Positions 1-59,336 of a DNA stretch of 64,000 nucleotides are shown piece after piece. Each line of letters begins with the position of its first letter. Position 1 is the stretch's first letter. The translations under genes were made by a program, and so were the position numbers. The notes under the pieces were generated by a model that saw only the letters and a program-made list of their open reading frames with translations, was not told the DNA's origin and ran no database searches. This stretch comes from Ignavibacteriota bacterium (GTDB taxonomy: Bacteria > Bacteroidota > Ignavibacteria > Tepidaquicellales > OLB5), in the NCBI GenBank assembly GCA_003820375.1, contig RPQH01000011.1, forward strand, positions 4,783 through 68,782, in the 5' to 3' direction.

Positions 1-62
1 TGCATTGGAGTGAACCGAAAATCCATAAAAGAGTAGGTATAATAAAAATCATTTCATAATAT

Positions 63-12141: not shown

Positions 12142-12238
12142 GTGCATAGAGTGAATAGAGTGTATAGAGTGTGTTGAGTGTGTTGAGTGAATAGAGTGTG
12201 TTGAGTGTATAATAAATAGAGTGAATGGCAATTGCAGG
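12140..12238 (+). repeat. 9-nt degenerate tandem array (GAGTGNRTR family) starting inside the stop codon
   Basis: TGAGTGCATAGAGTGAATAGAGTGTATAGAGTGTGTTGAGTGTGTTGAGTGAATAGAGTG... Confidence 0.9.
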
Positions 12239-12413: not shown

Positions 12414-12458
12414 TATTGCTCATTGCTCATTGCTCATTGCTCATTGTTAATTGCAAAT
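12414..12458 (-). repeat. heptamer array (CAATGAG)n in the 3' region of T9SS paralog 1
   Basis: The + strand reads TTATTGCTCATTGCTCATTGCTCATTGCTCATTGTTAATTGCAAATG. Confidence 0.9.
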
Positions 12459-12459: not shown

Positions 12460-14250
12460 TTATTTTATCAGAGCCATTTTCTTCACATCACTAAATCCTT
12501 CGCATTCAAGCTTATAAAAATATAATCCGCTTGAATAATTCGTACCATCCCATACCACACTGTAATTGCCGGCATTTTGCTTTTCGTTTACTAATACAGC
12601 TACTTCTTTTCCCAATGCATCAAATATTGTCAGCTTCGCATAATTGTCAATTGGCAATTGATAACTGATAATTGTATTTGGATTGAACGGGTTTGGATAA
12701 TTTTGTGAAAGTGAAAATTCATCCGGTACTATGCTTTCAGGTTTTCTAATAATCCCAATCATTTGGGGAATAAAGCAAATATTAGGAAGTGTTGTCTGCA
12801 ATGCACCTGTTGTTATATCATTACACCCATCACCTGTTGTAAGGTCATTATGAGCATGATAAACCCTGCCTGTTACAGCGGTGGATTTTACTGTTGAGTT
12901 CGATGTATAACTTGAGTTATTAAAACATATTTCAATCAACAAATTTCCTCCGGTATATGTAAACGGAGTAGTGAGAGTAATAAACTGCATTCCGGTTCCG
13001 GGCATTGTAAATGCTCCGCTGTAAACTTCGGTCATTCCTGTTCCAAATCCGGATATTGTTGAAGCAGTTGTATTTTGCATCCTTATTTTAAAACCATTCA
13101 TTACCTGGGGAGCAGCAGAAATAACATCAAATCCAATTCGCATTATCGTAGCAGGGCTTGATCCTATTTCATTGGCAAGATACAGCATATCGGTTCTGGA
13201 ATCCATATAGAATGTATAGAATGGATATCCAACGGAAGTGGAACCTGTTCCCCAGCATGTCAGGAAGTAACCCGGAGGATACACTCTCACATTTGTTGAT
13301 ACGGTATCATTGCCTCTGTTTTGATCTGTTGCTAAAGCAGACACAATTTTGATATTAATAAAACCGGTATCTGCCGGAACCCAGTTAAATGTTACCGAAT
13401 CAACTGCACCTGCATTTAAGCTCATGGATATGGAATTAACCTGGGTACCCTGAATAAAGAATTTTACCGGAAAATTTGATTCGTTAGATGTACCGGTATT
13501 AGCTATCCTGGCTTTTACTTGTTTCTGCAAATTCGTATTGAAATACGCAGGTAAGCCGAGGAATGGACCTGTTGCAATATTATGAGCATATGTCTGACCT
13601 GTTCCATCGACTCTTACTCCGATAGCTTTATATTGCGAGAAGTAGTTTGTAATTGGTGCCCATGCTGACTGGATATATCCATAGCCCGGTCTCTGAGTTG
13701 TTGTAGCTGATTCATCTCCTCCTATATATTTTTGTCTATTCTCTACTGGTTGTGGATCAAAGCTAATTCCTACATAAACACTTCCGGATGTAATTGCAGG
13801 AATACCTGTTAAGTTTGTGAAATCATACCATTCTACTTGAGGCCATGTAGGAACGACAGTTACTGTCTGGTTAGGTACAGAAGCAAGTAAGTTACCCGGA
13901 GAACCGCCAGTACCTGTCTGGTCGTAGATTTCGATATCAAAGGTAAAGCTTAGTGAAGGTTGTGTTGGGTATCTTGTTAAAGCTAAGCATACCTGATTGA
14001 TAGTAAAAGGATATGATGTTGGGGTCATCAACATTACCCACTTACCAATGCCAAAGTTCGGACCCCATCCATACCCATTTTCAAATGTGTTATCATCATA
14101 GACTAATCCTCCAACACACTGCGGTCCTATTAATCCTTCAGTTCCTTTTACAAAGGGACTTCTATCATTAGCAATTTGTAAAGCCGACTGGGAATATATT
14201 AAACCGGTAAAAACTGAAAAGATGAAAAAAAGTAGAATGAGTTTTTTCAT
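12460..14250 (-). CDS. T9SS-sorted surface protein, tandem paralog 1 (unknown N-domain, CARDB-like middle domain, CTD)
   Basis: Start moved to the ATG at 14250 (MKKLILLFF, GAGG 6 nt upstream), matching the other paralogs. Conserved QCVGGLVYDDNTFENGYGW. CARDB-like VKARIANTGTSNE..NAGAVDSVTFNWVP. C-terminal LSQNYPNPFNP..GLYFYKLECEGFSDVKKMALIK. Confidence 0.85.
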   Translation of the reverse strand: MKKLILLFFIFSVFTGLIYSQSALQIANDRSPFVKGTEGLIGPQCVGGLVYDDNTFENGYGWGPNFGIGKWVMLMTPTSYPFTINQVCLALTRYPTQPSLSFTFDIEIYDQTGTGGSPGNLLASVPNQTVTVVPTWPQVEWYDFTNLTGIPAITSGSVYVGISFDPQPVENRQKYIGGDESATTTQRPGYGYIQSAWAPITNYFSQYKAIGVRVDGTGQTYAHNIATGPFLGLPAYFNTNLQKQVKARIANTGTSNESNFPVKFFIQGTQVNSISMSLNAGAVDSVTFNWVPADTGFINIKIVSALATDQNRGNDTVSTNVRVYPPGYFLTCWGTGSTSVGYPFYTFYMDSRTDMLYLANEIGSSPATIMRIGFDVISAAPQVMNGFKIRMQNTTASTISGFGTGMTEVYSGAFTMPGTGMQFITLTTPFTYTGGNLLIEICFNNSSYTSNSTVKSTAVTGRVYHAHNDLTTGDGCNDITTGALQTTLPNICFIPQMIGIIRKPESIVPDEFSLSQNYPNPFNPNTIISYQLPIDNYAKLTIFDALGKEVAVLVNEKQNAGNYSVVWDGTNYSSGLYFYKLECEGFSDVKKMALIK

Positions 14251-14302
14251 TTCAAGCCTCATTTTTTAAGTTAGGGGAAACAGCAATTTGAATATATTAT
14301 TA

Positions 14303-14330
14303 ATATTATATATTAAGCCTTTTAAGTCAA
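14303..14330 (-). promoter_or_regulatory. sigma70-type promoter for paralog 1
   Basis: The minus strand reads ATCATTGACTTAAA..TAATAT: TTGACT (14330-14325), a 16-bp spacer, then TAATAT (14308-14303). The same module recurs at 19992-20019. Confidence 0.6.
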
Positions 14331-14400
14331 TGATATTTCTTGTCTTTAACACGTTGTGATTTGTTTTCTCTCCTGTCTAACTTGTACTTGTGAAGGAAAG

Positions 14401-14464
14401 GCAATCTTTAATCTGCAATCTTTAATCTGCAATCTTTAATCTGCAATCTTTAATCTGCAATCTG
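14401..14464. repeat. 14-nt tandem array (GCAATCTTTAATCT, about 4.5 copies)
   Basis: Near-perfect direct repeats seen directly. They lie just downstream of the stop of paralog 2 in mRNA sense. The same vocabulary recurs at 59481-59555. Confidence 0.95.
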
Positions 14465-16267
14465 TTATTTAATCAATACCAGTTTCTTCACATCAGTAAA
14501 TTCATTGCATTCCAGTTTATAGAAATATAATCCTGAAGAATAATTCGTCCCATCCCATTCCACATTGTAACTTCCGGCATTTTGCTTTTCGTTTACTATT
14601 ACAGCCACTTCTCTTCCCAATGCATCGAATATTGTTAATTTCACATAATTGCTCATGGGCAATTGATAATTGATAATTGTTTTAGGATTGAATGGGTTGG
14701 GATAATTTTGTGAAAGCGAAAATTTGTCCGGTATATTATTGTTAATATTTTTCGTACCAATCATATTTGTCTGAAAGCATATATTTGGCAAATTTACCTG
14801 CACTGCTCCGGTTGTAAGATCTGTACATCCGCCTCCGTTTGGTAAATCTGAATGTTGATGAAAGATTTGCTGCCCGACAGGTGTGCTTAAAACTGTTGAA
14901 CTGGAAGCATTGCTTGAGTTGTTGAAACATATTTCGATTAACAGATTTGCGCCTGTATAAGTAAATGGAGTTGCAAGGTTAATAAACTGCCATCCTGTGC
15001 CCGGTATTGAATATGTTCCGCTATATACTTCTGTCCAGCCTGATGGTATAAATCCTGCAATTAATGTATAGGTTGTATTTTGCATCTTTATTGAGAAACC
15101 ATTCATTACTGCCTGCGGATATGCTTCTGATACATTGAATCCGATTTTCTGGATTGTTGTGCCTGCACCAAATCCAATTTGAGCAGCAGTGTATATCATC
15201 TGAGTTCTTGCATCCATATACCCTGTTTCAAATGGATAGGCTGCTGTAGTTACACCAGGACCCCAGCATGCCTGGTAAACTCCGGAAGGAAGTACATATA
15301 CTGTTGTTGTTACTGTATCGTCTGCTCTGTATTGATCTGAAGCTAAGGATGATATGACTTTAAGTATCTTTGTTCCTGTATCAGTTGGTGTCCAGCTAAA
15401 TGATACTGAATCTACTGCACCTGCATTTAAGTTCGTTGCGATTGTTGATACCTGTGTTCCATTCACTACAAATGAAATTGGAATACCTGTCTCGTTTGAT
15501 GTTCCAAAGTTTTTTATCTTTGCTTTAATAGTTTTTTGTACTCCCGTATTGAAGTATGCCGGTAAGCTAAGGAATGGACCAACACAAATGTTATGAGCAA
15601 AGTTTTGTACTATTCCATCGGCTCTTATACCAATAGCTCTGTAGCCGGAGTAGATGGTGTTCTGTATTGGCACCCAGGTTCCGGTTGTTTGAGTGTAAAA
15701 ATATCCGGCCCTTAATGGTGTTGTTGTAGATTGATCACGACCAATTAAATGTGATGTATAATATGTAACGTTATAGCTGATACCTGCATATACACTGCCT
15801 GAAGTAATGGGAGGAATACCTGTTATGCCGGCAAAATCGAACCATGTCACCGTTGGGAATGTCTGTACACCAACTGCTGTTTGATTTGGAATTATAGCAA
15901 GTAAGTTACCCGGGGAGCCGCCTGGTCCTGTATTATCATATACTACAATATCAAAGGTCCAGTCAGCTGAGCCGCTTGTTCCTTTTGTCAATGCAAAACA
16001 CAATTGATTTATTGTGTAGGGATAAGATTGCGGTGTCATCAGCATGACCCATTTATATATACTATAATAACCACTAATCCATCCACATCCGCCCTCAAAT
16101 GTATTATCATCATACACTAATCCTCCAACACATTGAGCTCCTAATATGCCTTCTGTACCTTTTTCAATATGAGTTTTATTGATTTCATCAAAAGGCAATG
16201 AATATTGTGAATAAATTAAGCAAGTAAAAATTGTTAAAGCAAAATAGAGTAGAATAAACTTTTTCAT
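14465..16267 (-). CDS. T9SS-sorted surface protein, tandem paralog 2
   Basis: 600 aa with the same domain order as 12460-14250. Signal peptide MKKFILLYFALTIF. T9SS CTD ..GLYFYKLECNEFTDVKKLVLIK. Confidence 0.85.
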   Translation of the reverse strand: MKKFILLYFALTIFTCLIYSQYSLPFDEINKTHIEKGTEGILGAQCVGGLVYDDNTFEGGCGWISGYYSIYKWVMLMTPQSYPYTINQLCFALTKGTSGSADWTFDIVVYDNTGPGGSPGNLLAIIPNQTAVGVQTFPTVTWFDFAGITGIPPITSGSVYAGISYNVTYYTSHLIGRDQSTTTPLRAGYFYTQTTGTWVPIQNTIYSGYRAIGIRADGIVQNFAHNICVGPFLSLPAYFNTGVQKTIKAKIKNFGTSNETGIPISFVVNGTQVSTIATNLNAGAVDSVSFSWTPTDTGTKILKVISSLASDQYRADDTVTTTVYVLPSGVYQACWGPGVTTAAYPFETGYMDARTQMIYTAAQIGFGAGTTIQKIGFNVSEAYPQAVMNGFSIKMQNTTYTLIAGFIPSGWTEVYSGTYSIPGTGWQFINLATPFTYTGANLLIEICFNNSSNASSSTVLSTPVGQQIFHQHSDLPNGGGCTDLTTGAVQVNLPNICFQTNMIGTKNINNNIPDKFSLSQNYPNPFNPKTIINYQLPMSNYVKLTIFDALGREVAVIVNEKQNAGSYNVEWDGTNYSSGLYFYKLECNEFTDVKKLVLIK

Positions 16268-16297
16268 GACTTACCTAATATATTATTTTTAAAAAAT

Positions 16298-18079
16298 TTA
16301 TTTAATTAGTACTAACTTCTTTACATCACTAAATCCTTCGCATTCCAGTTTATAGAAATATAACCCTGAAGAATAATTCGTCCCATCCCACTCTACACTG
16401 TAACTTCCGGCATTTTGCTTTTCGTTTACTAATACAGCTGCGTTTTTTCCTAATGCATCAAATATTGTCAGCTTAACATAATTGCTAATTGGCAATTGAT
16501 AACTGATAATTGTTTTTGGATTGAATGGATTGGGATAATTTTGTGAAAGTGAAAATTCTTTTGGTATTTCACTTTGTATTTTCCTGTTATTTCCATTCCA
16601 GATAATTAAACAAATATTCGGGCGTGTTGTTTGGGTACTGCCTGTTGTAATATTTATACACCCGTCTCCGGATGAAAGGTCTTCGTGTTTGTGATATACT
16701 TTTCCGGAAAACGTTGTTGATGCTACAGTTGAATTTTGTGAATATCCTCCATTATTAAAGCATACTTCTATTAATAGATTTGTACCATTATAAACAAATG
16801 GAGTATCAAGAGTTATCCACCTCCATCCTGTGCCGGGTACAGTATAAGTACTGCTGTAAACTATATGCCAACCTGTTTGAGGAAATCCGGAAACCGTAGT
16901 ATTAGTCGTATTCTGCATCTTAATTTTGAAACCGGACATTGTAGCAGGAGCTGCAGTCATAACATCAAAAGCAATATTAGTAATAATTGCAGGCCTGCCG
17001 TCATTTCCAATTTCATTTGCAAGATAGAGCATATCGGTTTTTGAATCCATGTAAAATGTATAGAAGGGATATCCGGCAGGTAATGCGCCGGTACCTATAC
17101 AGCTGTTTATTGCTCCCTGTGAATTCACCGTAACATTTATTGAAGCTGTATCATTGCCTCTGAATTGGTCGTTTGATAAAGCTGCAACTACTTTCAGGTT
17201 GTTGTTTCCAGCTTCTGCAGGTGTCCAATTAAAGCTTACGGAATCAACAGCACCTGTATTTAAATTTTTGTTTACGGTAAATAAATGAATTCCGTTAACG
17301 AAGAATTTAAACGGTACACCTGTTTCATTTGAAGTGCCCATGTTGGTTACTTTAGCTTTAATTACAGATTGAGTACCTAATGTAAATAATTCCGGAATAG
17401 AAAGAAAAGGACCTGCTTTAATATTATGAGAATAAATGACATCTGCAGTATCAACCCTGATACCAACAGCTCTATTTGAAGGAAAGAATGATTGAATTGT
17501 ACCCCATGTGTTCTGTATATATCCATATCCAAGTCTTGCAGGAGTTGTTGGGCTTTCATCAGCAGCAAGGTATCGCCCTGACATTGTTGAAGGATTCCAG
17601 CTAAGACCCACGTAATAACTTCCCGAATTTAATACAGGTATAGATATAATTTGATCAAAATCAAACCATGTTACCGCCGGCCAGACTGGAACATTTACTG
17701 CTGTTTGATTGACAATGCCGGTTATTAAGTTACCTGGTCTTCCATTTGTTCCTGTTGTATCATAAACTTCAATATCAAATATCCAATCCGCTCCTGAATT
17801 TCCTGTAAGCGCAAAACAAATCTTACCGATTTTATATGGGTATGATGAAGGAGTAAATTTTAAAACCCATTTTCCAATACCATAACCGGGATTCCAGCCG
17901 TAACCGTTTTCCCATGTGTTGTCATCATATACTATGCCGCCAACACATTGAGCACCAATTAATCCTTCGTTACCCTTAATAAAAGGCACATTTCCATTTG
18001 TAATTTGAGCAGCGGGTTGAGAATATATTATGCTAGTAAAGACTAATAATGCAAAAATAAGTAAAATTAGTTTTTTCAT
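16298..18079 (-). CDS. T9SS-sorted surface protein, tandem paralog 3
   Basis: 593 aa paralog. The intergenic gap to its neighbours is 30-34 nt, which suggests an operon. GAGGT lies upstream of the ATG. Confidence 0.85.
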   Translation of the reverse strand: MKKLILLIFALLVFTSIIYSQPAAQITNGNVPFIKGNEGLIGAQCVGGIVYDDNTWENGYGWNPGYGIGKWVLKFTPSSYPYKIGKICFALTGNSGADWIFDIEVYDTTGTNGRPGNLITGIVNQTAVNVPVWPAVTWFDFDQIISIPVLNSGSYYVGLSWNPSTMSGRYLAADESPTTPARLGYGYIQNTWGTIQSFFPSNRAVGIRVDTADVIYSHNIKAGPFLSIPELFTLGTQSVIKAKVTNMGTSNETGVPFKFFVNGIHLFTVNKNLNTGAVDSVSFNWTPAEAGNNNLKVVAALSNDQFRGNDTASINVTVNSQGAINSCIGTGALPAGYPFYTFYMDSKTDMLYLANEIGNDGRPAIITNIAFDVMTAAPATMSGFKIKMQNTTNTTVSGFPQTGWHIVYSSTYTVPGTGWRWITLDTPFVYNGTNLLIEVCFNNGGYSQNSTVASTTFSGKVYHKHEDLSSGDGCINITTGSTQTTRPNICLIIWNGNNRKIQSEIPKEFSLSQNYPNPFNPKTIISYQLPISNYVKLTIFDALGKNAAVLVNEKQNAGSYSVEWDGTNYSSGLYFYKLECEGFSDVKKLVLIK

Positions 18080-18113
18080 TTCTTACCTCATAGAAAAAAA
18101 ATTACTTAAAATT

Positions 18114-19940
18114 TTATTTTAATAACATAATTTTCTTTACATCGGTAAAACCATCACATTCTATTTTTAGAAAATATAACCCGCTCGCAAAATTCGTGCC
18201 ATCCCACTCCACATCGTAAGTGCCGGGTGTTTGCTTTTCATTTACAAGTGCGGCAACAACTTTTCCCAAAGCATCATAAATAACAAGCTTTACTTCACTG
18301 CTAACCGGCAATTGATAACTGATAATTGTTTTAGGATTGAATGGATTGGGATAATTTTGTGAAAGTGAAAATTCTTTTGGTATTTCATTTTGTGTCCCAT
18401 TCACTCCGACCATACATGGTGGATTAGGATTTAAATTTGTCGGGTAACCCTGGAAACATATATTTGGTAATGTAGCCTGAACAGTACCGGCTGTAATCAT
18501 AACACAACCATCTCCCGCAGAAATATCCTGGTGGTTGTGAAAAACTCTATTAGGATTTGATGTTGACGCTATTGTAGTACTTGATGTATAACTTGAATTG
18601 TTGAAGCAAATTTCAATTAAAAGATTGCAATTTGAATTATAATAAAACGGAGTTGATAAATATATCCATTGCAACCCGGTTGATGAAACAGAATAAGTTC
18701 CGCTATAAACTTCAGTCCACCCTGTTGAAACAAATCCGGTCAATGATGTCAAAGGTGTATTCTGCATTTTTATCTTAAAACCATTCATAACCTGTGGAGC
18801 TGCTGACAAAACTGTAAAGCCAATTTTAGTTATCACACTTAAATTAACTCCTATTTCACTTGCCAGGTAAAGAAAATCTGTTCTTGAATCCATATAAAAT
18901 GTATAAAAAGGATATTGAACTGCAATAGAACCTGTACCGTAACAAGGACTATAATAACCGGGAGGATATACATGCACAATTGTAGATACTGTATCATTAG
19001 CTCTGTATTCATCAGTTACCAATGCAGAAACAATTTTTAAAATAAAGTTTCCCGTATCTGCAGGCGTCCAGTTAAAAGCTACTGAATCTACTGCATTAGC
19101 ATTCAGGGATGTTATGATTAAGCTATTAACCTGAGTACCATTAACAAAGAATTTCATCGGGATATTTGATTCATTGGATGTACCGAGATTTTTTACTTTT
19201 GCTTTTATTACTTTCTGTACATTTACATTATACAATCCCGGTAAACTAAGGAACGGACCTGTTGCAATATTATGAGTATAAGTAACACCTGTACCATCAC
19301 ACCTTACACCGATAGCTTTATAGTTTGGGTAATATGTTTGAATACCTGCCCATGCACTTTGAATATATCCGTAGCCGGGTCTTAATATTGTTGTAGGGCT
19401 TTCATCAGCAGCAATATAATGAGATGGCATGGTTGCCGGGTCATAACTGATACCTACATAATAACTCTGCCCTGTTGTTAATGGAGGGACACCGGTTAAG
19501 CCGGTAAAATCAAACCATGTTACATTAGGCCATATCGGTACACCTGTTGCAGTCTGATTTGCAATAGTATGAACTAATGTTCCCGGACCGCCGCCTGTTC
19601 CGGTTGCATCATAAAATACAATATCAAAAGTAAAATTAGCTGAACCTGCGGCTACTCTCGTAAGAGCTAAGCAAACCTGATTGATTGTGAATGGGTAATC
19701 AGCCGGGGTCATTTTCATAGCCCATTTACCAATACCGTAACCGGCATTCCATCCATACCCGTTTTCCCATGTGTTGTCATCATAAACTAATCCGCCAACA
19801 CATTGAGCCCCGAGCATTCCTTCATTGCCTTTTATAAAAGGTGTATTATCATTTGCAAGCTGAGATGCAGGTTGAGAATATAAAGTATTTAAAGAAACTA
19901 TAGCTGAGAAGAGTAAAGACAGTAAAATGAGCTTTTTCAT
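18114..19940 (-). CDS. T9SS-sorted surface protein, tandem paralog 4 (first gene of the 3-gene operon)
   Basis: 608 aa paralog. GAGGTAAAAAATG ribosome-binding context. T9SS CTD ..GLYFLKIECDGFTDVKKIMLLK. Confidence 0.85.
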   Translation of the reverse strand: MKKLILLSLLFSAIVSLNTLYSQPASQLANDNTPFIKGNEGMLGAQCVGGLVYDDNTWENGYGWNAGYGIGKWAMKMTPADYPFTINQVCLALTRVAAGSANFTFDIVFYDATGTGGGPGTLVHTIANQTATGVPIWPNVTWFDFTGLTGVPPLTTGQSYYVGISYDPATMPSHYIAADESPTTILRPGYGYIQSAWAGIQTYYPNYKAIGVRCDGTGVTYTHNIATGPFLSLPGLYNVNVQKVIKAKVKNLGTSNESNIPMKFFVNGTQVNSLIITSLNANAVDSVAFNWTPADTGNFILKIVSALVTDEYRANDTVSTIVHVYPPGYYSPCYGTGSIAVQYPFYTFYMDSRTDFLYLASEIGVNLSVITKIGFTVLSAAPQVMNGFKIKMQNTPLTSLTGFVSTGWTEVYSGTYSVSSTGLQWIYLSTPFYYNSNCNLLIEICFNNSSYTSSTTIASTSNPNRVFHNHQDISAGDGCVMITAGTVQATLPNICFQGYPTNLNPNPPCMVGVNGTQNEIPKEFSLSQNYPNPFNPKTIISYQLPVSSEVKLVIYDALGKVVAALVNEKQTPGTYDVEWDGTNFASGLYFLKIECDGFTDVKKIMLLK

Positions 19941-20019: not shown

Positions 20020-20594
20020 TGATAAATCGTGTCTTAAAATACACATGCATTTGTTCTTAATTAAATTCATTTCCATTCTCATTGTTTTCCCTGCATTCCC
20101 ACCATATATCATTCCCCTGACTGATGCAGTCAGGGGAATGACATGTGTTAGGTAAGCGGGGAATGACACGGGGTGACATACAGTAAAAATCAGAGTTGGG
20201 TTCAAAACAGTGCGGAGATGGGTTCAAGTTGTGCCGGAGTTGGGGTCAAGTTAGTATCCAGTTGGGTTATCGTTTTTCAAAAACAGGGGTTAACTCATTG
20301 CAGTATAAGGAGATAACGCCGTCAGAGATGTGAGATTTTTGATTTAAAATTGGCGATTTCGAGCCGGAATCACCAATTTTTCATCATAATAAAACTTCAC
20401 TATATCATTAACCATTATCGTTATGGGAAAATTTTGGCAGCAAATTATTGTCGCTGATGTTGGAGAGTTAAAGTAATACTTTAAGGATTATCCGGCTCAT
20501 TTCAGGACACACCCCGTCTTATCAATTCCGTAGAACGGAATTGATAATCCACCCCTCTCGAGAGGGGAATCCTTTGATTTTTAAGCTCTAAATA

Positions 20595-20636
20595 CACCTC
20601 TCCTCCCAGGAGAGGGGAAAGGGGTGAGGTTTTTTC
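20595..20636 (+). terminator. GC-rich hairpin plus T6 inside the variable spacer of element copy A
   Basis: CCTCTCC (20597-20603) / GGAGAGG (20609-20615), then ..GGGGTGAGGTTTTTT. It is preceded by a perfect 13-bp hairpin (20519-20547) and the palindrome CCCCTCTCGAGAGGGG (20552-20567). Confidence 0.45.
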
Positions 20637-20645
20637 ACAAAAAAC

Positions 20646-20674
20646 TTGACAATTAGTAATTACTATATTAAATT
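20646..20674 (+). promoter_or_regulatory. conserved orphan promoter of element copy A
   Basis: TTGACA (20646-20651), a 17-bp spacer ending CTATAT, then TAAATT (20669-20674). The same arrangement occurs at 40874-40902 and 59130-59158. Confidence 0.7.
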
Positions 20675-20854
20675 ATATAGTGATGCTTATATATCAGTAT
20701 AAGCATAAATAATCGTTCTTTGACAAAATCGTAAATTAGAAAGTTATGTCGTTTGTTAATGTAAGGAATGGAGTCACGAAAATAGTTAGATTTTACACAG
20801 ATGAAAAAAATATGTATTGAAAAATGCACTAAAATAATTTTATCAGGAAATCAT

Positions 20855-22111
20855 TCACTTTTTGGCTGTCTGCATTTGCTTGAACCAGAATATTGTTAAT
20901 CCAATAAGCATTAATATAGAAAAAATGAAAAGAAGAAGATGATAGGGGATAGCAGGCATTGAATTGTAATAAACCAGTATCTGCATGAAAAGCAGTATTT
21001 CGCTTGCAAAAAAACCGGTTAGGAAAGTTATTAAACCTGTTTTTGAAATAACGGTATCAATTTCAAAAAATTCTTTATCTGTAAACCACCAGAACAATCC
21101 GCATGTTACAAATCCAAGCATGACCAGATGAATATACCCGATAATAATATCCCTGTTGCTAAAAACTATGCCTGCAAAATACGGGGCTGATGAAACTGAC
21201 TGCAATACATATTTTAATAGAAGCGAAAAAACGGAAATATATAATAAAAACTTAGCTAATGCCGGTAAATTCTCAGTTAAGAATGTTTTGTGTGTGTAAA
21301 TTATTCTCATCAATAATAACACTCCCAATATCTGAAGGAAAGCCGATAATGCACCTATCTGAACGAACAAATCAGGTACCGGGTAACCTAACAATGACAG
21401 GAAGTAAGCAGGAATGTTTGCAAAAAACAAAAGCCAGAATGCAGATTTTAAGTATGAAGTGTAAATAAATATTTTTACAGTTTCTATTTTCGATAATATT
21501 AAACCAATGATACCGAATGTAAACCACCCGTTATATTGAAAATGCAAATAAAAATATATTGCCTGCTGGTATAAATCTTTATTGGGAATATTAGAGGCCG
21601 TTATGACTGCAAGTCCCCACGGACCAATTGTTGATAATATTAAAAAGAATAATCCGCCGTATATAAACATCATTGATGCCGGGTACCTGTCATATACTTT
21701 ATTTATTCTGACATCTTTCACGAAACAGTAAACAAACCAATATGTAATAATTATATGGAGGGTCGAAAATATTATAGACAGAACCCAGTATCCTTTAATG
21801 GGAAATGTTATAAGCATTCCCAGCACCGAAAACTGAATCAGCCAGAATATCCTGTTATATGCCGTTGATTTAAAACCTGTACCGGGCAAAAATTTATAAA
21901 GGAATGCAATGAATAAAGCGGAATAAACCCATCCCAGCATTGCCGTATGAGAATGTGCGTGAAGAATGTAGTTGAATTCAAACAGGGGAAAGGTTACAAC
22001 AAATTTTAATCTCATTATCACACCGATAAGAGCGATAATGAGAATATAAGCTGAGCCGGTAAGAAGCCAGAACCTCTTTTTATCTTTAAAGATAAACTCT
22101 GATACTTGCAT
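20855..22111 (-). CDS. multi-pass membrane protein of unknown function, translationally coupled to glgP
   Basis: 418 aa and very hydrophobic. His-rich motifs HAHSHTAMLGW and YLHFQYNGW. Its ATG overlaps the glgP stop (TAATG). Confidence 0.7.
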   Translation of the reverse strand: MQVSEFIFKDKKRFWLLTGSAYILIIALIGVIMRLKFVVTFPLFEFNYILHAHSHTAMLGWVYSALFIAFLYKFLPGTGFKSTAYNRIFWLIQFSVLGMLITFPIKGYWVLSIIFSTLHIIITYWFVYCFVKDVRINKVYDRYPASMMFIYGGLFFLILSTIGPWGLAVITASNIPNKDLYQQAIYFYLHFQYNGWFTFGIIGLILSKIETVKIFIYTSYLKSAFWLLFFANIPAYFLSLLGYPVPDLFVQIGALSAFLQILGVLLLMRIIYTHKTFLTENLPALAKFLLYISVFSLLLKYVLQSVSSAPYFAGIVFSNRDIIIGYIHLVMLGFVTCGLFWWFTDKEFFEIDTVISKTGLITFLTGFFASEILLFMQILVYYNSMPAIPYHLLLFIFSILMLIGLTIFWFKQMQTAKK

Positions 22112-28822: not shown

Positions 28823-28891
28823 ATAACGAAACTCCTTCATTATAAATTGTATTTAATATAATAAATCATCATTTTTGATTAGATGAATTAA

Positions 28892-28955
28892 TCAAATTTA
28901 TCAGATTCATCAGATTTATCAGATTCGCAATTGGCAATTCGCAATTCGAAATTGA
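28892..28955 (+). repeat. 9-nt (CAGATTYAT) then 7-nt (CAATTSG) tandem arrays upstream of the tRNA
   Basis: TCAAATTTATCAGATTCATCAGATTTATCAGATTCGCAATTGGCAATTCGCAATTCGAAATTG. Confidence 0.9.
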
Positions 28956-28959: not shown

Positions 28960-29031
28960 GCTCCCATGGTGTAATGGACAGCACGACAGGTTCCGGTCCT
29001 GTTGGTGAGGGTTCGAATCCTTCTGGGAGTA
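28960..29031 (+). tRNA. tRNA-Arg (anticodon CCG)
   Basis: Manual cloverleaf. Acceptor GCTCCCA/TGGGAGT (G1-U72 wobble). D-stem GTGT/GCAC with a GG loop. Anticodon stem ACAGG/CCTGT, loop TTCCGGT. T-arm GAGGG-TTCGAAT-CCTTC. Discriminator A. No encoded CCA. Confidence 0.8.
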
Positions 29032-29038
29032 CTAATAC

Positions 29039-29145
29039 AATTACGAATGACGAATGACGAGTTACGAATGAAGAATTACGAATTACGAATGACGAATTAC
29101 GAATGACGAATGACGAATTACGAATGACGAATTACGAATGACGAG
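29039..29145. repeat. heptamer array (ACGAATK)n, about 15 units
   Basis: TTACGAATGACGAATGACGAGTTACGAATGAAGAATTACGAATTACGAATG... It abuts the stop codon of the minus-strand gene 29146-29811. Its units are the reverse complement of the CAATTCG units left of the tRNA. Confidence 0.95.
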
Positions 29146-29811
29146 TTAACCTTTCAACCTGTAACCTGCAGCCACTCTGTGCCTGTCAACCCAATAAGCC
29201 CACAATACAAGCAGCCATTGTGTTAATCCAAGATAAGCAATAGATTTAACATCGGGCGGCGGCGGACCCATGATATTTCCAAAATAAATAATTACAAGAA
29301 AAACTATCAAAGCCCAAAAGGCATATGTGCCAATTTTATCTTTTGCAGATGTTGCAGAGATATAAAACCAAACTCCAAGGATGAAAATAACTGACTCAAG
29401 TATAATAGCAATAACCGGTGAATTCCACAATCCAAAGCCGACATTTGGTCCGGATGTAAGAAGAGGCAGGTCAGGGCGGTGTACAAACAGGTCAAGCACC
29501 CAGTGGCTTAATACCAATAAACCTACAATCAATGAATTCTTTACATTTCTTTTAATAAAGAAATAAATACCTCCAATAATAATACTCCATGCGAGTACAA
29601 AAATTAAGCTGTGGCTGTAGGGATAATCCGAAAAATTTAATGGTGTCATTATAGTATCACCCGGATTTATGACAACATGTTCAATTCCGAATAAGAGCAG
29701 CAATGGCCAAAGCAAATCAAGCCATTGAGAAGCAAGGAACAATGTTCCTAACGAAACCTGCGGAGCCGGTTTTTTGCCGGCTAATCCTGCACCAAAATGA
29801 CCTATAAACAT
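29146..29811 (-). CDS. multi-pass membrane protein, unknown function
   Basis: 221 aa and hydrophobic, with N-terminus MFIGHFGAGLAGKK. The ORFs that overlap it are short. Confidence 0.65.
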   Translation of the reverse strand: MFIGHFGAGLAGKKPAPQVSLGTLFLASQWLDLLWPLLLLFGIEHVVINPGDTIMTPLNFSDYPYSHSLIFVLAWSIIIGGIYFFIKRNVKNSLIVGLLVLSHWVLDLFVHRPDLPLLTSGPNVGFGLWNSPVIAIILESVIFILGVWFYISATSAKDKIGTYAFWALIVFLVIIYFGNIMGPPPPDVKSIAYLGLTQWLLVLWAYWVDRHRVAAGYRLKG

Positions 29812-32850: not shown

Positions 32851-32879
32851 TTGACCGTTAAATTTATTTTAAATAAATT
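32851..32879 (+). promoter_or_regulatory. sigma70-type promoter upstream of the first OmpA-family gene
   Basis: TTGACC (32851-32856), 17 bp, TAAATT (32874-32879). Confidence 0.5.
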
Positions 32880-32981
32880 ATACTTCCGTAGGGGTTAAGT
32901 TCTAATTTCAAAATAAATTTTGGTAAAATTTAGCATTTGATAACTAATCCTACATCAAAAAACATTTCTTCCGGGGGGAAC

Positions 32982-34793
32982 GTGAAAAACTTCCTTACTG
33001 CATATTTTATTTTGTTTATTCTTTCTGTCATTTTATTTTCATTTAATACAAAATATTTATTAGCACAAATACAGGTCGATGACGGAAACGACCCTGAGTA
33101 TTATTTTAATATTGTAAAGCTTTATGCACCTAACGAAGATGCGTTTATTGCATTACAAAGACTGGCAAAGCCTTACATAGATAGAAAAGACTGGAAAAAA
33201 GCAATTAAAGTATTTGAAGAGAACAAGAGCAGGTTCCCGGCAATGACTGAAAGGTTTGATAAAATTATAGCTATTCTCGAAGGTCCTGAAGAAGGCATTA
33301 AAATGATAAATATGGGAGGCAATATTAATTCAGGCGGAGCCGAATATGTACCTAACCTGACTCCCGATATGAAAAAACTTTATTTTACAGGACGAAACAG
33401 GGAAGATGAAATCGGCGGTGAAGATGTGTATATATCTTATTACATTGGCAATCATTGGTCTATAGCATTACCCATTAGCGGAAAGATAAATACCGAAAGT
33501 AATGAATTTGTAAACAGCATTTCTGCCGATGGTAATACATTGGTTCTTTTTGGCAACTATGAGAAACAACTTGGCAGAGGCGATAATTTTTATTCTGAAA
33601 GAATTCCTTTGGGCTGGTCTGATATAAAAACTTTCCCGGCACCGATAAATTCCAAGTGGTGGGATGCGGATGCTTTTTTAACCGCAGATGGTAAAGCAAT
33701 CATATTTTCTTCCGAAAGACCGGGAGGTGTTGGTCCCTATCATCAAAAAGGAGATTACTTTCATGGCATGTACTGGGGTAATATTGACCTGTATGTTTGT
33801 TTAAGAGAAGGTGACGGCTGGAGCAAGGAAGCAATTAATTTAGGTCCATCAATTAATACACCTTTTACCGAGCGTTCGGCTTTTCTTCATCCCGATGGTA
33901 AAACTTTATATTTCTCTTCGGATGGTTTTCCCGGTTTAGGTAAATCTGATGTATTCAAATCTGTCAGGTTAAGCGATACATCGTGGACAATGTGGAGTGA
34001 GCCGATAAATCTCGGGAAAGAAATAAATACCAGCCAGGAAGACTGGGGCTATAAAATATCGACAGACGGGAAAACGGCTTATTTCTCTACTGTAAATAAT
34101 TCGGGTTTTGGTGAGGAAGATATTTATTACATTAACCTGCCGCAGTATGCAAAACCCGAAAAGAACGTAATTACAATTACAGGGAAAGTACTTGATGAAA
34201 AAGGTAAACCTGTTGACGCAGTTATTAAGTGGGAAGATATAGACAGGCTAATAGAAGTAGGTATTGCGAAAACAGACCCTGCAACAGGTGAGTATTTTAT
34301 TGCTTTACCTGTAGGCAAGTATTACGCATATTTTGCTGAAGTCCGCGGTTATTATTCAACAGTGAATTATCTTGACCTGACCGATGCAAATACATTTCAG
34401 GAAATAAAAACGGATGTCAATCTTGTTTCTGTTGAGGAGCTGAAGAATTCAGGCAAGAGCATAAAAATAGAAAATATATTTTTTGATTTCGGAAAATATG
34501 ATTTAAAGGAAAAATCATATGAAGCCCTGAACCTGCTTTATAAGTTTATGAAAGATAACCCCGATATAATGGTAGAAATTAATGCTCATACCGATAACAT
34601 AGGGAGTGATAATTTTAATATTCATTTATCTGAAAACAGGGCATCATCCGTAGTAAATTATCTTTTACAAAAAGGAATTGAGCCCGGCAGACTATTCCCG
34701 CAGGGTTTTGGCAAAAACAACCCTGTTGCAAGCAATGATACCGACGAAGGCAGAGCCCTTAACAGGCGTGTGGAATTCCGCTTGAAAAAATAA
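32982..34793 (+). CDS. OmpA-family protein with TolB-like beta-propeller repeats
   Basis: C-terminal OmpA-like domain (FDFGKYDLK..NAHTDNIGS..NRRVEFRL). Repeats of the type ..DGKTLYFSSD. The start is uncertain: GTG at 32982 preceded by GGGGGG, or the track TTG at 32937. Confidence 0.8.
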   Translation: MKNFLTAYFILFILSVILFSFNTKYLLAQIQVDDGNDPEYYFNIVKLYAPNEDAFIALQRLAKPYIDRKDWKKAIKVFEENKSRFPAMTERFDKIIAILEGPEEGIKMINMGGNINSGGAEYVPNLTPDMKKLYFTGRNREDEIGGEDVYISYYIGNHWSIALPISGKINTESNEFVNSISADGNTLVLFGNYEKQLGRGDNFYSERIPLGWSDIKTFPAPINSKWWDADAFLTADGKAIIFSSERPGGVGPYHQKGDYFHGMYWGNIDLYVCLREGDGWSKEAINLGPSINTPFTERSAFLHPDGKTLYFSSDGFPGLGKSDVFKSVRLSDTSWTMWSEPINLGKEINTSQEDWGYKISTDGKTAYFSTVNNSGFGEEDIYYINLPQYAKPEKNVITITGKVLDEKGKPVDAVIKWEDIDRLIEVGIAKTDPATGEYFIALPVGKYYAYFAEVRGYYSTVNYLDLTDANTFQEIKTDVNLVSVEELKNSGKSIKIENIFFDFGKYDLKEKSYEALNLLYKFMKDNPDIMVEINAHTDNIGSDNFNIHLSENRASSVVNYLLQKGIEPGRLFPQGFGKNNPVASNDTDEGRALNRRVEFRLKK

Positions 34794-36654: not shown

Positions 36655-36786
36655 AGTTCAGAGAGTTTAGAGAGTATAGAGAGTTCAGAGAGTTTGGAGA
36701 GTTCGGAGAGTTCGGAGGGTTCAGAGAGTTCAGAGAGTTCAGAGAGTTCAGAGGGTTCAGAGAGTTCGGAGAGTTCGGAGAGTTTA
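36653..36786 (+). repeat. 9-nt tandem array (GAGAGTTYR), about 15 units, starting in the stop codon
   Basis: TAGAGTTCAGAGAGTTTAGAGAGTATAGAGAGTTCAGAGAGTTTGGAGAGTTCGGAGAGTTCGG... Confidence 0.95.
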
Positions 36787-40074: not shown

Positions 40075-40107
40075 TTAAAGATTTTTTCAAACCTCCTTCT
40101 TTAGACT

Positions 40108-40151
40108 GACATCAATGTCATATTGCTGTATGATGTTGATGTCTTTTTTTA
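40108..40151 (+). terminator. intrinsic terminator
   Basis: GACATCAA (40108-40115) / TTGATGTC (40136-40143) followed by T7. Confidence 0.65.
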
Positions 40152-40161
40152 TTTCTTTCCC

Positions 40162-40292: not shown

Positions 40293-40411
40293 GAAAAGCA
40301 ACTGCCAAAGGCAGTCAAGCCAACAACGGGTAACTAATCAAACCCGTCACTGTCTCAAAAATGCCGCCCGCCTGTACGGGCAGACATGTGGATTTTCTCC
40401 ACAAAAAACCG

Positions 40412-41047
40412 GAGTTGGGTTCAAAACAGTGCTAAGTTAGGTTCAAGTTGTGTCGGAGTTGGGTTCAAGTTGGCATCAAGTTGGGTCATCGTTTTTGGAA
40501 AACAGGGGTTAACTCATTGCAGTATAAGGAGATAACGCCATCAAAAATATGAGATTTTCGATTAAAGATTTGCGATTTTGAGCCGGAAACGGCATTTTTC
40601 TAGCAAAATAAAACTTCACTATATCATTAACCATTATCGCTATGGGAAAAATTTGGTAGCAGATAATTGTCGCTGATGTTGGAGGAGTTAAAGTATTACT
40701 TGAAGGTATTTCCGGTTTATTTTATTCACATCCCGGTCTAATCGCATATTGATTCTTCTTACTTCTAACCTCTGATATATAACTTCTTATAATTGTAAAT
40801 CCTGCTAAAATTGATGGGATTGCCACGCTTTGCTCGCAATTGTGCTTAACATCCAACTATTTTCACCAAAAACTTGACAATAAGCAATTACTATATTAAT
40901 TTAATGTAGTAGTGATTATCATCACTCAGTAACGTTCTTTGATAAAATAGAGATGAATTTATACATGTCGTAATATTGTATGAAAATACTGCTCACTAAT
41001 TTGGTTAGATTTTGGAAGTTTGAAAAAAATATGTACTGAAAAATACC
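40412..41047 (+). repeat. ORF-free modular element, copy B
   Basis: Same order of modules as copy A. Islands identical to A include GGGGTTAACTCATTGCAGTATAAGGAGATAACGCC (40505-40539) and AAAACTTCACTATATCATTAACCATTATCG. Confidence 0.85.
40874..40902 (+). promoter_or_regulatory. conserved orphan promoter of element copy B
   Basis: TTGACA (40874-40879), 17 bp ending CTATAT, TAATTT (40897-40902). Confidence 0.7.
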
Positions 41048-41050
41048 TAA

Positions 41051-41172
41051 AGAGTCAGGAGTTCAAGAGTCTGGAGTCGGGAGTCTGAGAGTTGAGAATC
41101 TAAGAGTTTGAAAGTCAGAGTTATAAGTTCGGGAGTTGAGAGCTATAAGTTTTAAAGTTGCGGGTTATGAGC
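41051..41172 (+). repeat. degenerate 7-9-nt array (GAGTYNR words)
   Basis: GAGTCAGGAGTTCAAGAGTCTGGAGTCGGGAGTCTGAGAGTTGAGAATCTAAGAGTTTGAAAGTCAGAG... Confidence 0.8.
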
Positions 41173-41251
41173 CGGGTGGTGAATACTGTTTTTGTTTTCT
41201 GGATACTCATTTTCCCGAATATATTTGGCAATAAGATTCTATGTTCAGTAT

Positions 41252-42982
41252 TTATTTTGTGTCGCGAAGACAGGAGAAGATAAAATCATTAATATCTTTT
41301 ACAGTAACATTTGGAGTGATTTTCATGAAAGTGGAAGGAGAGTTGTTCTGGTATATCCAGTTGGAAATTAATTTCATACTATCCAGCTCTTCTTTATTAT
41401 ATTTACCGTAATTGTTATATAATACAGAGCCAAAAAGGTTTCCTCTGAAATATATATTCTTAATCAATTCATTCAAAATCTCCTTGCCCTGTGTTGAATC
41501 CTGCAGGGCAGGGGAGACATAAAACGTCTTTACCAGCTTACCACCCGAAATAAAAAACAACTCACCGGAATTTTCCTCCCCGGTTTCCGGGCATTTTACA
41601 ATGTAGTTTTTCAGATTAATCTCTGCAGAGGTTAAAATCATGTTAGCCATTACTTTTTTCAGGTCTTCAATCCTGTCACGTAAAATCGATGCCTCTTCAA
41701 ATTGCAGTTGTTCTGAATATTCAAACATCTTTTTCTCGAGCATCTGAAGTGCTCCCGGGCTTGCTTCCGATTCGAGGAATGTTATAACACGGTTCACCTC
41801 TGCCCTGTAAGCAGGGTGCGGCTCCGAGAAATTGCACGGTGCATTGCATTGCTTAAATTCATGATACATGCAGGTTGAGTGTTTAACCGAAGGTGTTAAT
41901 TTTTTATCATCACATTTACGGAGGAAAAATCCCTTGTAAATCCTGTCAAGCAATGAATTAACCGTATACGAACTGCGGAATGGTCCGTAATATCTTCCGC
42001 CGTCCAGCTTCACCTCAAATGTTTTTTCTGCTTTGGGATACTCGTTCTGCACATCAATTTTGATAAATGGGAAATTGCTGTATCTCTTTGTTGCTGAATT
42101 ATACGGCGGCTTTAATGATTTTATCAGCCTGCTCTCAAGTATTAATGCAGAAAGCTCAGAGCCGGTAATTTCATAATTAACTTTTTGTACTTCACGCAGC
42201 ATTTTTTTTATCTTTGGTGTGTGCGATACATTATGATAGAAATAAGAACGTACCCTGCTGTTGAGATTCTTTGCCTTGCCGACATAAATTATCTTATCAT
42301 GTCTATCTTTCATAAAATATACACCGGAATTAAACGGGATATCCTTCAGCTGCTGCTTGATGCGTTTTATATTGGGTGGTATCTTTTCTGCTTCAAATAT
42401 TTTTTTATACTGGAATGAAAGTATTTCATCAATAGATTCGTATTCATATTCATTCAGCAGTGTATCAATAAACCTGAGGAGTATTTTTGCAGTTGCAGTA
42501 GCATCATCAAGTGCACGGTGTCTTCTTTCAACTTTTATCTGGTAATGTTGTGAAAGTGAATAAAGCGATTTTGACCTGAGATTCTTGTTTAGCCTTCTGG
42601 CAAGCCGTCCTGTACAAATGGTGGGTGTATCAACAGGCATCTCACCGCATCTTTGTAATGAGTTATTCAAAAACTTGTAATCGAACGATACATTATGCCC
42701 TCCCAGAACAACATTATCCGAACCGAAGGCAAAATCCTTTAGAATCGGCACAACTTTATCGAATGTTGGCTTATCGTACACCATTTCATTTGTAATTCCT
42801 GTAAGAGATGTAATATATGATGATATATACATCTGTGGATTTACAAGTGTTGAGAATTCTGAAATAATCTTTCCCTTCTGGATTTTAACCATTCCAATTT
42901 CCGTAATACGGTCATGGACGGCACTTAAACCGGTTGTTTCAACGTCTAATACTATGAATGTTGTATCTGAAATTGAGTTCAA
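41252..42982 (-). CDS. DnaQ-like 3'-5' exonuclease fused to a GIY-YIG (UvrC/Cho N-terminal-like) nuclease
   Basis: Exo motifs FIVLDVETTGL, GHNVSFDYKFL and HRALDDA. Then GVYFMKDRHDKIIYVGKAKNLNSRVRSYF and ELSALILESRLIKSLKPPYN. Confidence 0.85.
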   Translation of the reverse strand: MNSISDTTFIVLDVETTGLSAVHDRITEIGMVKIQKGKIISEFSTLVNPQMYISSYITSLTGITNEMVYDKPTFDKVVPILKDFAFGSDNVVLGGHNVSFDYKFLNNSLQRCGEMPVDTPTICTGRLARRLNKNLRSKSLYSLSQHYQIKVERRHRALDDATATAKILLRFIDTLLNEYEYESIDEILSFQYKKIFEAEKIPPNIKRIKQQLKDIPFNSGVYFMKDRHDKIIYVGKAKNLNSRVRSYFYHNVSHTPKIKKMLREVQKVNYEITGSELSALILESRLIKSLKPPYNSATKRYSNFPFIKIDVQNEYPKAEKTFEVKLDGGRYYGPFRSSYTVNSLLDRIYKGFFLRKCDDKKLTPSVKHSTCMYHEFKQCNAPCNFSEPHPAYRAEVNRVITFLESEASPGALQMLEKKMFEYSEQLQFEEASILRDRIEDLKKVMANMILTSAEINLKNYIVKCPETGEENSGELFFISGGKLVKTFYVSPALQDSTQGKEILNELIKNIYFRGNLFGSVLYNNYGKYNKEELDSMKLISNWIYQNNSPSTFMKITPNVTVKDINDFIFSCLRDTK

Positions 42983-52233: not shown

Positions 52234-52269
52234 TTAAGAAATAAAACGTAACTTATAAGAATTTTATTA

Positions 52270-58686: not shown

Positions 58687-58693
58687 AGTCAGC

Positions 58694-59310
58694 GGTCACT
58701 CAGTGGTCACTCAGCGGGCAGTTTATGGGCACTCAGTGGGCACTTTACGGGCACTTTATGGGCAGGTTTTGGGCAGGAGTTTTTAAAAAATGACTGTAAC
58801 TTATTGCAGTATAAAGAGATAACTCCTGCCCAAAGTGCTAAAAATGGCTCGAAATTTGGCGATTATAAGCAGGAAATGAGGTTTTTGAAAAACCGCTCCT
58901 GCCCACTGATTTTCGGGAAAAAATAAACAAAATAACCGAATCATCGTCGCTATAATTTAAGAGTTAAAGTAATACTTCAAGGGTTTCCCGGCTCGTTTAA
59001 ACTCACGCCCCCTTAATCACTTCGAAGAGGGAACTGCTTACTATATTAATCCTCTAATCTGATAAATTTGATAAATCTGATGAATTTGATAAATTATTCT
59101 ATACATTCGAAACTATTTTTTGCTAAAACTTGACAAGAGGCAATCTCTATATTAATTTTATATAGTAGTGAATGCTGATGCAATTTATTATCCGTTGTCG
59201 TACTTTGCTAATATCGAAATCATGATTATCAGGTCGTAAATTTAATTTATCGGGAGCTTAGCTACAGGGCCGGATATGGGAATAAAAAAGTATTAAAAAT
59301 GAAAATTTTT
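58694..59310 (+). repeat. ORF-free modular element, copy C (diverged)
   Basis: Eight GGKCAS words at exact 11-bp steps (58694 to 58771). Then CTGTAACTTATTGCAGTATAAAGAGATAAC, GAGTTAAAGTAATACTTCAAGG..CCGGCTC, a spacer containing 9-mers, and the promoter module. Confidence 0.8.
59130..59158 (+). promoter_or_regulatory. conserved orphan promoter of element copy C
   Basis: TTGACA (59130-59135), 17 bp ending CTATAT, TAATTT (59153-59158). Confidence 0.7.
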
Positions 59311-59336
59311 CCATTTGTAGGAGTTTTCCTACAAAT

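Follow-up and report, generated by a model that had tools for sequence, protein, structure and literature searches.

Several bacteria carry families of non-coding repeats between their genes. The Correia elements of Neisseria (CREE/NEMIS) are short, high-copy intergenic sequences with subfamilies, which bring promoter and terminator signals next to genes; they measure 100-155 bp, are bounded by 26-bp terminal inverted repeats, duplicate a TA target and contain an IHF site. The BOX elements of Streptococcus pneumoniae (boxA-boxB-boxC) and the BIME/REP sequences of enterobacteria are modular mosaics with fixed outer and variable inner modules, lie outside genes in tens to hundreds of dispersed copies and reassort their modules between copies. 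They consist of short palindromic units, for which folding as RNA or binding of gyrase and IHF is predicted. Here we describe a composite repeat of about 650 nt in a 64,000-nt stretch of an Ignavibacteriota bacterium (contig RPQH01000011.1; the whole stretch is called the window, and coordinates refer to it unless another contig is named). The element functions most like the Correia elements and is built most like BOX and BIME, and it is a member of neither. Compared with Correia elements it is larger, has no terminal inverted repeats and no sequence similarity, and carries its predicted promoter about 190 nt inside the right end, followed by conserved sequence. BOX elements and BIMEs, to which it is likewise unrelated in sequence, have no conserved complete promoter, unlike this element.

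The window holds three copies, A, B and C. They share the + strand, with 20.2 kb from A to B and 18.3 kb from B to C. Alignment of these copies identified a segment that an earlier note had singled out as a promoter followed by conserved sequence as the right module (R) of the repeat. The modules follow each other in the order of an array of 11-nt iterons, a left module (L) of about 300 nt, a variable mosaic spacer of 106-207 nt, and R. The sequence upstream of the promoter had been described as unrelated among the copies. This holds for the spacer, which alone varies between L and R (that of copy A is unrelated to those of B and C), but L is conserved and so is the A/T tract (ACTATTTT-N4-6-AAAAC) directly 5' of TTGACA. 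REP-like hairpins and simple repeats of 7-9 nt make up a mosaic in the spacer, in the left flank and in parts of L, and these pieces are reassorted between copies.

Further loci were found in metagenome contigs with an exact 21-mer from L. The 49 metagenome loci come almost all from two Joint Genome Institute (JGI) assemblies of one community (Ga0105092, Ga0209819). Counting duplicates between the two assemblies once leaves 34 distinct full-length copies, the three window copies included, of which 19 belong to type 1 and 15 to type 2, two subfamilies that differ in their iteron units. The promoter and hairpin statistics below are for 33 copies.

The motif AAAACTTGACAA-N3-G-N-AAT-N2-CTATATTAAWTT (pattern AAAACTTGACAANNNGNAATNNCTATATTAAWTT) has exactly three matches in the window, all on the + strand (20641-20674, 40869-40902 and 59125-59158), and none in shuffled window sequence. 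The same motif, AAAACTTGACAA...CTATATTAAWTT, is also carried by 30 further distinct full-length copies from the same metagenome. TTGACA starts at 20646, 40874 and 59130 and is followed by 17 nt and then by TAAATT or TAATTT, exactly as the earlier note had reported for the three copies, and its claim is strengthened by the invariance among 33 diverged copies. TTGACA is identical in 33/33, the distance from -35 to -10 is 17 nt in all copies inspected, and the first, second and sixth positions of the -10 (T, A and T) do not change among the variants TAAATT, TAATTT, TATTTT, TATATT and TACATT. Information content is near its maximum in the A/T tract (ACTATTTT, 4-6 variable nt, AAAAC), in TTGACAA and in TA..TT, and low across the 17 nt between the hexamers and at positions 3 and 4 of the -10. 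The promoter-like modules occupy 20626..20674 in copy A (T6-CAC-A6 tract, -35 at 20646-20651, -10 TAAATT at 20669-20674; 10/12 consensus matches), 40856..40902 in copy B (ACTATTTTCACCAAAAAC, -35 at 40874-40879, -10 TAATTT at 40897-40902) and 59112..59158 in copy C (ACTATTTTTTGCTAAAAC, -35 at 59130-59135, -10 TAATTT at 59153-59158), all on the + strand.

The hexamers are thus better conserved than the spacer between them, as is characteristic of a sigma-70-type promoter, and these positions are kept despite about 30% pairwise divergence among the R modules. Nothing besides a full promoter (A/T tract, -35, 17 bp, -10) fits the conserved positions of this stretch. Fixed hexamers and a variable spacer within surroundings that diverge by about 30% are the pattern expected from purifying selection on a sigma-70-type promoter with an UP-like element; the way in which such promoters are conserved is established knowledge. 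Judged by these alignments, the predicted promoter is maintained by purifying selection in essentially every copy.

Within a few nt of the predicted start, a hairpin is present in 33/33 copies. Hairpins of different sequence had been noticed before in the three window copies and were found again at 20683-20706 in A (10 bp, -10.2 kcal/mol), at 40911/40912-40926 in B (AGTGAT/ATCACT) and at 59165-59191 in C, where G-U pairs contribute, all on the + strand. Across the family there are at least five unrelated stem designs (GATGCTTATA/TATAAGCATC, AGTGATA/TATCACT, TGATGGAGCTTATAT/ATATAAGCATCATTA, ATAGTAGTGA/TCACTCACTGT and GTGGT/ACCGC). Compared with dinucleotide shuffles the mean z is -2.4, with z < -2 in 19/33 copies, and the + strand folds more stably than its reverse complement in 23/33 (means of -8.9 and -6.7 kcal/mol). 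G-U pairs make up 44 of the 363 pairs. The strand bias, the G-U pairs and the unrelated stems together favour selection on the + strand RNA.

We give an even chance to the reading that the element is a lineage-specific modular intergenic repeat, in which R is a promoter kept by selection that starts a non-coding, AU-rich transcript with a 5' stem-loop, and L is a binding platform at the level of DNA. R would then be a sigma-70-type promoter made of the A/T-rich upstream tract, the -35 TTGACA, a 17-bp spacer and a -10 TAnnTT, and we infer that its + strand transcript starts about 6-8 nt past the -10. The first element of this RNA would be a stem-loop that is kept by its structure and not by its sequence, and which probably stabilises the 5' end. 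The remaining approximately 120 nt would carry short conserved single-stranded blocks. The 3' end of the RNA would depend on the copy, with the transcript stopping at a hairpin, entering simple repeats or reading towards the neighbouring gene. L, with its iterons, inverted iteron copies and palindrome, would act as protein-binding DNA and not through RNA structure.

If the promoter is active, the repeat family would place dozens of extra transcription starts beside gene ends, from which antisense and read-through transcription and new regulation would arise in a phylum that has been little studied. Selection that keeps a promoter and a 5' hairpin in more than 30 diverged copies is usually unexpected of selfish repeats, and this maintenance may point to a host-level or element-level role of the RNA.

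The predicted transcribed part of R lies at 20681..20833 in copy A (nhmmer modR 20641-20841, E = 2e-30), at 40909..41055 in copy B (40869-41055, E = 5e-42), where it ends with TGAAAAATACCTAAAG, and at 59165..59336 in copy C (59125-59326, E = 1e-38), all on the + strand. The shared blocks and the A-rich tail that had been described for the segment are present, namely CGTTCTTTG..., (A/G)(T/G)GTCGT, GTTAGATTTT and the tail. As RNA they would read CGUUCUUUG, GUCGU, GUYAGAUWU and GGAA, followed by the A-rich tail, within about 120 AU-rich nt past the hairpin. In copy A the blocks are CGTTCTTTGACAAAATCG (20714-20731), ATGTCGT (20746-20752), GTTAGATTTT (20785-20794) and the tail GATGAAAAAAATATGTATTGAAAAATGCAC (20800-20829); copy B has the shared blocks as well, and copy C has GTCGTACTTTGCTAATATCGAAAT, GGTCGT and an A-rich tail to about 59305. 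The segment was said to contain no ORF (open reading frame), and indeed none is common to the copies on either strand or conserved between the subfamilies.

Several observations weigh against a promoter that starts a functional RNA. The -10 agrees with TATAAT at only 3-4 of 6 positions, and the exact grammar TTGAC-N18-TAnnTT occurs only once more in the window outside the three copies, as TTGACC-N17-TAAATT at 32851-32879 (+), 58 nt 5' of the ORF 32937..34793. Upstream of the tRNA-Arg gene in the window there is no recognisable sigma-70-type promoter. The bias in the orientation of neighbouring genes is non-significant (20 vs 10, p = 0.10), with no sign of polar promoter activity. Whole transcripts of the three window copies fold no better than shuffles (z = -1.7, +0.2 and +1.1), and RNAalifold, run on type 1, type 2 and both jointly and on both strands, found no covarying helix beyond the 5' hairpin. 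In some copies the stem of that hairpin reaches partly upstream of the expected start, which a palindrome in the DNA would explain too. A consistent terminator is missing among the copies, and the conserved blocks of R could equally be DNA sites.

The additional site at 32851-32879 had been put forward as a sign that the motif is plausible for this organism. The site exists, but as the sole one of its kind in the window outside the repeat it makes TTGAC-N18-TAnnTT only a weak candidate for the organism's general promoter grammar. Upstream of 163 genes on the same metagenome contigs, sigma-70-like sites with at least 10/12 matches numbered 21 in sense and 14 in antisense orientation and 7 in shuffled sequence, a modest enrichment. 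The Bacteroidetes-type grammar TTG-N19-21-TAnnTTTG was not enriched upstream of these genes.

Module L and its array differ in character from R. Type 1 arrays, as in copies A and B, consist of RAGTTGGKDTC units with a super-period of 22 nt, and the type 2 array of copy C consists of YAGYGGGCACT units. Position and 11-nt period are the same in both subfamilies and the unit sequences are different, which suggests that the arrays serve subfamily-specific protein binding. In copy A the array spans 20190..20272 (about 7.5 tandem units; the array is common to 19/19 type-1 copies), in copy B 40410..40491 (Tandem Repeats Finder period 22, 40434-40486) and in copy C 58689..58780 (about 8 units), each on the + strand. 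The copy C array ends with TGGGCAGGAG, which continues the type-2 units and has two inverted copies downstream (CTCCTGCCCA, 58824-58833 and 58896-58905); with the proximal one it has the potential for a perfect 14-bp stem. As an RNA helix this type-2 stem (GGGCAGGAGTT/AACTCCTGCCC) was rejected, since in other copies one arm becomes CTCGTGACC without compensation. A long-range pairing within L (TTAACTC/GAGTTAA) was dropped as well for lack of compensation, and the 3' arm of the L palindrome also varies without compensating changes.

The invariant blocks of L are TAACTYATTGCAGTATAARGAGATAAC, GGCGATT..GGAA, GTCGC and the palindrome GAGTTAAAGTAWTACTTNAAGG; the block ATTGCAGTATAA... starts at 20296, 40515 and 58802. 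Copy A has L at 20273..20515 (nhmmer modL 20268-20512, E = 1e-68), with the invariant block TAACTCATTGCAGTATAAGGAGATAAC at 20291-20317, the hairpin GGCGATT...GGAA followed by a T-run at 20355-20380, and the palindrome GAGTTAAAGTAATACTTTAAGG at 20465-20486, which is preceded by GTCGCT and followed by CCGGCTCATTT..CACACCCC. The L of copy B lies at 40492..40734 (block 40510-40536, palindrome 40685-40706; nhmmer 40487-40724, E = 2e-64) and that of copy C at 58781..59015 (block 58797-58823, palindrome 58961-58982; nhmmer 58774-59007, E = 9e-57), again all on the + strand. The spacers that join L to the promoter-like modules occupy 20516..20625, 40735..40855 and 59016..59111. In copy A the spacer contains the REP-like hairpins TTATCAATTCCGT/ACGGAATTGATAA, CCCCTCTCGAGAGGGG and CCTCTCC..GGAGAGG and ends with GGGGTGAGGTTTTTT, and in copy C it includes the simple repeat TGATAAATT (59056-59094).

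An nhmmer search over 1.44 Mb found L and R only together, in constant order and orientation and 106-207 nt apart, with the exception of copies cut at locus ends and one truncated copy (L041). Pairwise identity in L is 82% within type 1, 76% within type 2 and 57% between the types, and in a 215-nt segment of R it is 72%, 66% and 50%, respectively. No pair of non-duplicate copies is more than 95.5% identical.

The family looks confined to one uncultured Ignavibacteria lineage. The window's metG gene was found on a Ga0209819 contig, and NCBI names the metG protein 'MAG: Ignavibacteriae bacterium', where MAG stands for metagenome-assembled genome; the best relatives of GlgP, at 60-62% identity, are from Ignavibacteriaceae MAGs. 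The exact 21-mer from L had no match among the GTDB representatives (one genome per species), the L block had none in viral contigs, and a blastn search of plasmids gave no match. A loose R pattern gave 55 matches in viral contigs, all of which were chance matches according to nhmmer. Rfam 15 yielded nothing relevant at gathering or permissive thresholds, only far sub-threshold matches to miRNA-like hairpins. Seven loci from relatives, 80 kb in total with orthologues 75-87% identical, contain no copy of the element, and a literature search for intergenic repeats with a promoter in Ignavibacteria produced no match.

Gene callers predict an ORF of 84 codons within the type-2 array and L (58672-58926, +). 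This ORF has only 11 relatives among 5.8 billion proteins (P0121-P0131, 59-98 aa; NCBI RPI14808.1, EHM58_15615), every one of which traces to the same sample or to an NCBI MAG record of an 'Ignavibacteriae bacterium'. The 'hypothetical proteins' annotated within the type-2 array and L are almost certainly spurious ORFs made by the repeat, and recognising the family would clean MAG annotation of them.

The copies show a mild preference for the 3' ends of genes and no significant polarity. With duplicates removed, 20 copies have a convergent and 10 a co-directional gene on the R side, and the gene next to L faces the element with its 3' end in 22 copies and with its 5' end in 14. The transcripts of copies A and B would run towards convergent genes (20855..22111 and 41252..42982, both -), as had been pointed out before. 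In one relative (L191) the convergent genes for a transglutaminase-like protein and a DEDD/GIY-YIG exonuclease, the latter 81% identical to that of the window, are 21 nt apart (1949-1969 of that contig), compared with 1,177 nt in the window (40075-41251). The extra DNA of the window at this orthologous site consists of hairpin repeats, copy B and a simple repeat. Sites of the element are empty in relatives, which indicates that it was inserted or built up within the lineage.

Being small, non-coding, multi-copy and different in presence between relatives, the element resembles a miniature inverted-repeat transposable element (MITE). However, an inverted-repeat search found no terminal inverted repeats, and the left end is unrelated to the reverse complement of the right end. 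No target duplication could be identified; the flanks are themselves repeats, and at the one empty site the difference amounts to 1.15 kb of non-coding DNA that has built up. About 0.5 Mb of contigs contained neither an autonomous relative with a transposase nor any multi-copy transposase-like ORF, and no ORF lies between or beside the modules. The sole recurrent neighbours are genes for proteins secreted by the type IX secretion system (T9SS), which are abundant throughout the contigs.

These data bear directly on the suggestion of the earlier note that the promoter could belong to a mobile unit, which gains from the dispersed, multi-copy distribution and the empty site and loses by the absence of terminal inverted repeats, an identifiable target duplication and a transposase. 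In this explanation, R would be the end of a non-autonomous mobile element with an outward promoter, its downstream blocks would be recognised in trans by a recombinase or transposase, and the RNA would have no function beyond occasional read-out. Promoters at the ends of insertion sequences (IS10 pOUT, ISAba1, IS4351/IS1186 of Bacteroides) similarly read outward into neighbours or make antisense RNA, but they sit in elements with a transposase and terminal inverted repeats, neither of which was found here. The setting agrees with such an origin, since the element is intergenic, gene 3' ends form 42/66 of the flanks and the family is limited to one lineage, and in 10/30 copies a co-directional gene starts 34-442 nt downstream. 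So does the element itself, which is conserved to its very end, has no RNA structure in the body of R, and carries in L iteron-like repeats with inverted copies that lack RNA-type covariation, typical of protein-binding ends. Against it stands, besides the missing hallmarks of transposition and of any other multi-copy gene in 0.5 Mb, that no non-duplicate pair exceeds 95.5% identity, so that there is no sign of recent transposition. In addition, a recombinase site would not readily account for a hairpin of fixed place and variable sequence that shows a + strand bias and contains G-U pairs. We regard a mobile end as possible but rather unlikely. The chance is small that the whole element is instead a protein-binding platform on the DNA, for a nucleoid-associated protein, as a domain boundary or as an operator or iteron array, in which TTGACA, TA..TT and the blocks would be binding sites and not a working promoter. 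Eight tandem units of 11 nt, one helical turn each, with sequences of their own in each subfamily at the same position would suit this role, as would the uncompensated variation of the inverted iterons and the palindrome and the distance of about 18-20 kb between the window copies. In type 2 the block CTTTGTCAA past the hairpin is also an imperfect inverted copy of the -35 region CTTGACAA(G). This inverted TTGACA is degenerate in type 1, however, the conserved positions fit a full promoter and nothing else in the stretch, and the strand asymmetry and G-U pairs of the hairpin point to RNA. No candidate for the binding protein was identified.

The earlier note had preferred a discrete, trans-acting structured small RNA (sRNA) of about 150-170 nt with its own promoter and terminator, and this claim was not supported: the fold is at chance, no helix covaries beyond the 5' hairpin, a terminator-like hairpin without a U-tract occurs in only some type-2 copies, and the family is restricted to one lineage. 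Joint folding with RNAalifold gave no more than -0.5 kcal/mol for type 1 and -4.9 kcal/mol for type 2, with zero compensatory pairs, and a candidate hairpin enclosing GUCGU was inconsistent across copies. At their 3' ends, five type-2 copies carry a hairpin of 10-12 bp, in about 14 copies simple repeats follow directly, and the others run towards the neighbouring gene; a U-tract is found in none. The perfect 10-bp hairpin reported past copy C does exist (59313-59336, +), with no U-tract after it. Neither targets complementary to the R blocks, searched in the window, nor complementarity between R and L (non-significant z-scores in RNA duplex prediction) were found, Rfam gave no match, and the family was absent from the 80 kb of related species, the GTDB representatives (exact 21-mer) and the viral contigs. 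The promoter module, the 5' hairpin, the strong terminal hairpin of the five type-2 copies and the single-stranded blocks, which could serve as seeds or protein-binding regions, still speak for an sRNA, and an A-rich tail could bind Hfq-like proteins; we doubt that the predicted R transcript is such a structured small RNA. Described RNA systems differ in a similar way. Omega RNAs of IscB/TnpB and the bridge RNA of IS110 are non-coding RNAs of about 150-200 nt at an element end with their own sigma-70 promoter, which is the arrangement predicted here, but they are strongly structured and adjoin a nuclease or recombinase gene, and here there is no adjacent ORF and no supported fold; Rfam includes the HEARO/omega-RNA family, and the element matches no Rfam family. 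The sRNA families Qrr, LhrC and the cyanobacterial Yfr2-5 are paralogous non-coding genes that share a promoter and short single-stranded motifs. They have 2-7 copies, defined terminators and cross-species conservation; here the full-length copies number at least 34, belong to a single lineage, lack a common terminator and are linked to a DNA-level module of about 300 nt. Hardly credible is a small protein encoded by R, for which a 32-codon ORF of copy A (20801-20899, starting inside the A-rich tail) and the resemblance of GGAAGGA 5' of the ATG to a ribosome-binding site in type 1 could be cited; readings of R as small ORFs were rejected, as the copies have no conserved ORF, several of them lack the ATG or have it replaced, the commonest frame (ATG-TAT-TGA) has two codons and type-2 frames differ. 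The promoter-led repeat, to which we gave an even chance, could be taken further as a self-contained non-coding unit in which the iteron platform L is coupled to its own constitutively transcribed RNA R. This would be either a mobile element without terminal inverted repeats, using the RNA as primer, guide or antisense together with an iteron-binding protein acting in trans, or a set of more than 40 transcribed insulator or boundary units placed tens of kb apart over the chromosome. It is a long shot, and if true would add a hitherto undescribed kind of bacterial repeat.

On contigs with several copies, the copies have mixed orientations, without evident replication-linked polarity. Two copies are themselves interrupted by short hairpins, CCCAGAGGGATCCCTGTGGGA between the -10 and the 5' hairpin in L011 (about 7040-7075) and TCCGCCTAGGCGGA within module L in L012. 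These secondary insertions indicate that the repeat is a target of smaller palindromic repeats. REP-like perfect hairpins (CATTCCCC..GGGGAATG, CCTTCCCAAGTTGTACTTGGGAAGG, CCCCTCTCGAGAGGGG) lie beside or inside the element in the window, at 20100-20175, 40163-40190, 40268-40292, 20552-20567 and 20597-20617, and the same modules adjoin copies on other contigs, for example L004, L008, L024, L026 and L028.

A simple repeat of the 7-nt unit GAGTCNG follows copy B (41050-41170). Tandem arrays of 7 or 9 nt occur in many intergenic regions (GAGTGTGTA x19, AGAGTTCAG x15, AATGACG x15), mostly just 3' of genes. In the window they are found at 12140-12226, 12415-12454, 14401-14464, 28887-28926, 29039-29148, 36653-36784, 41082-41160, 58518-58688, 59363-59440 and 59481-59554. 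They often flank the element and also exist without it, and there were no perfect arrays in the 80 kb from relatives.

The window further contains two tandem arrays of four paralogous genes each, at 12460-19940 (-; about 600 aa) and 50863-56873 (+; about 460 aa), with 60-83% identity. Both arrays encode secreted proteins: those of the array at 12460-19940 end in the T9SS sorting motif NYPNPFNP, and the orthologue of the array at 50863-56873 has GSDH and Por_Secre_tail domains. In a relative, one gene copy stands where the window has four. The tRNA-Arg(CCG) gene at 28960-29032 (+), the only ARAGORN match in the window, has simple-repeat arrays on both sides. At the very start of the window, positions 5-39 (+) match the DUF805b RNA motif of Rfam with 41.4 bits, against a gathering threshold of 35.6.

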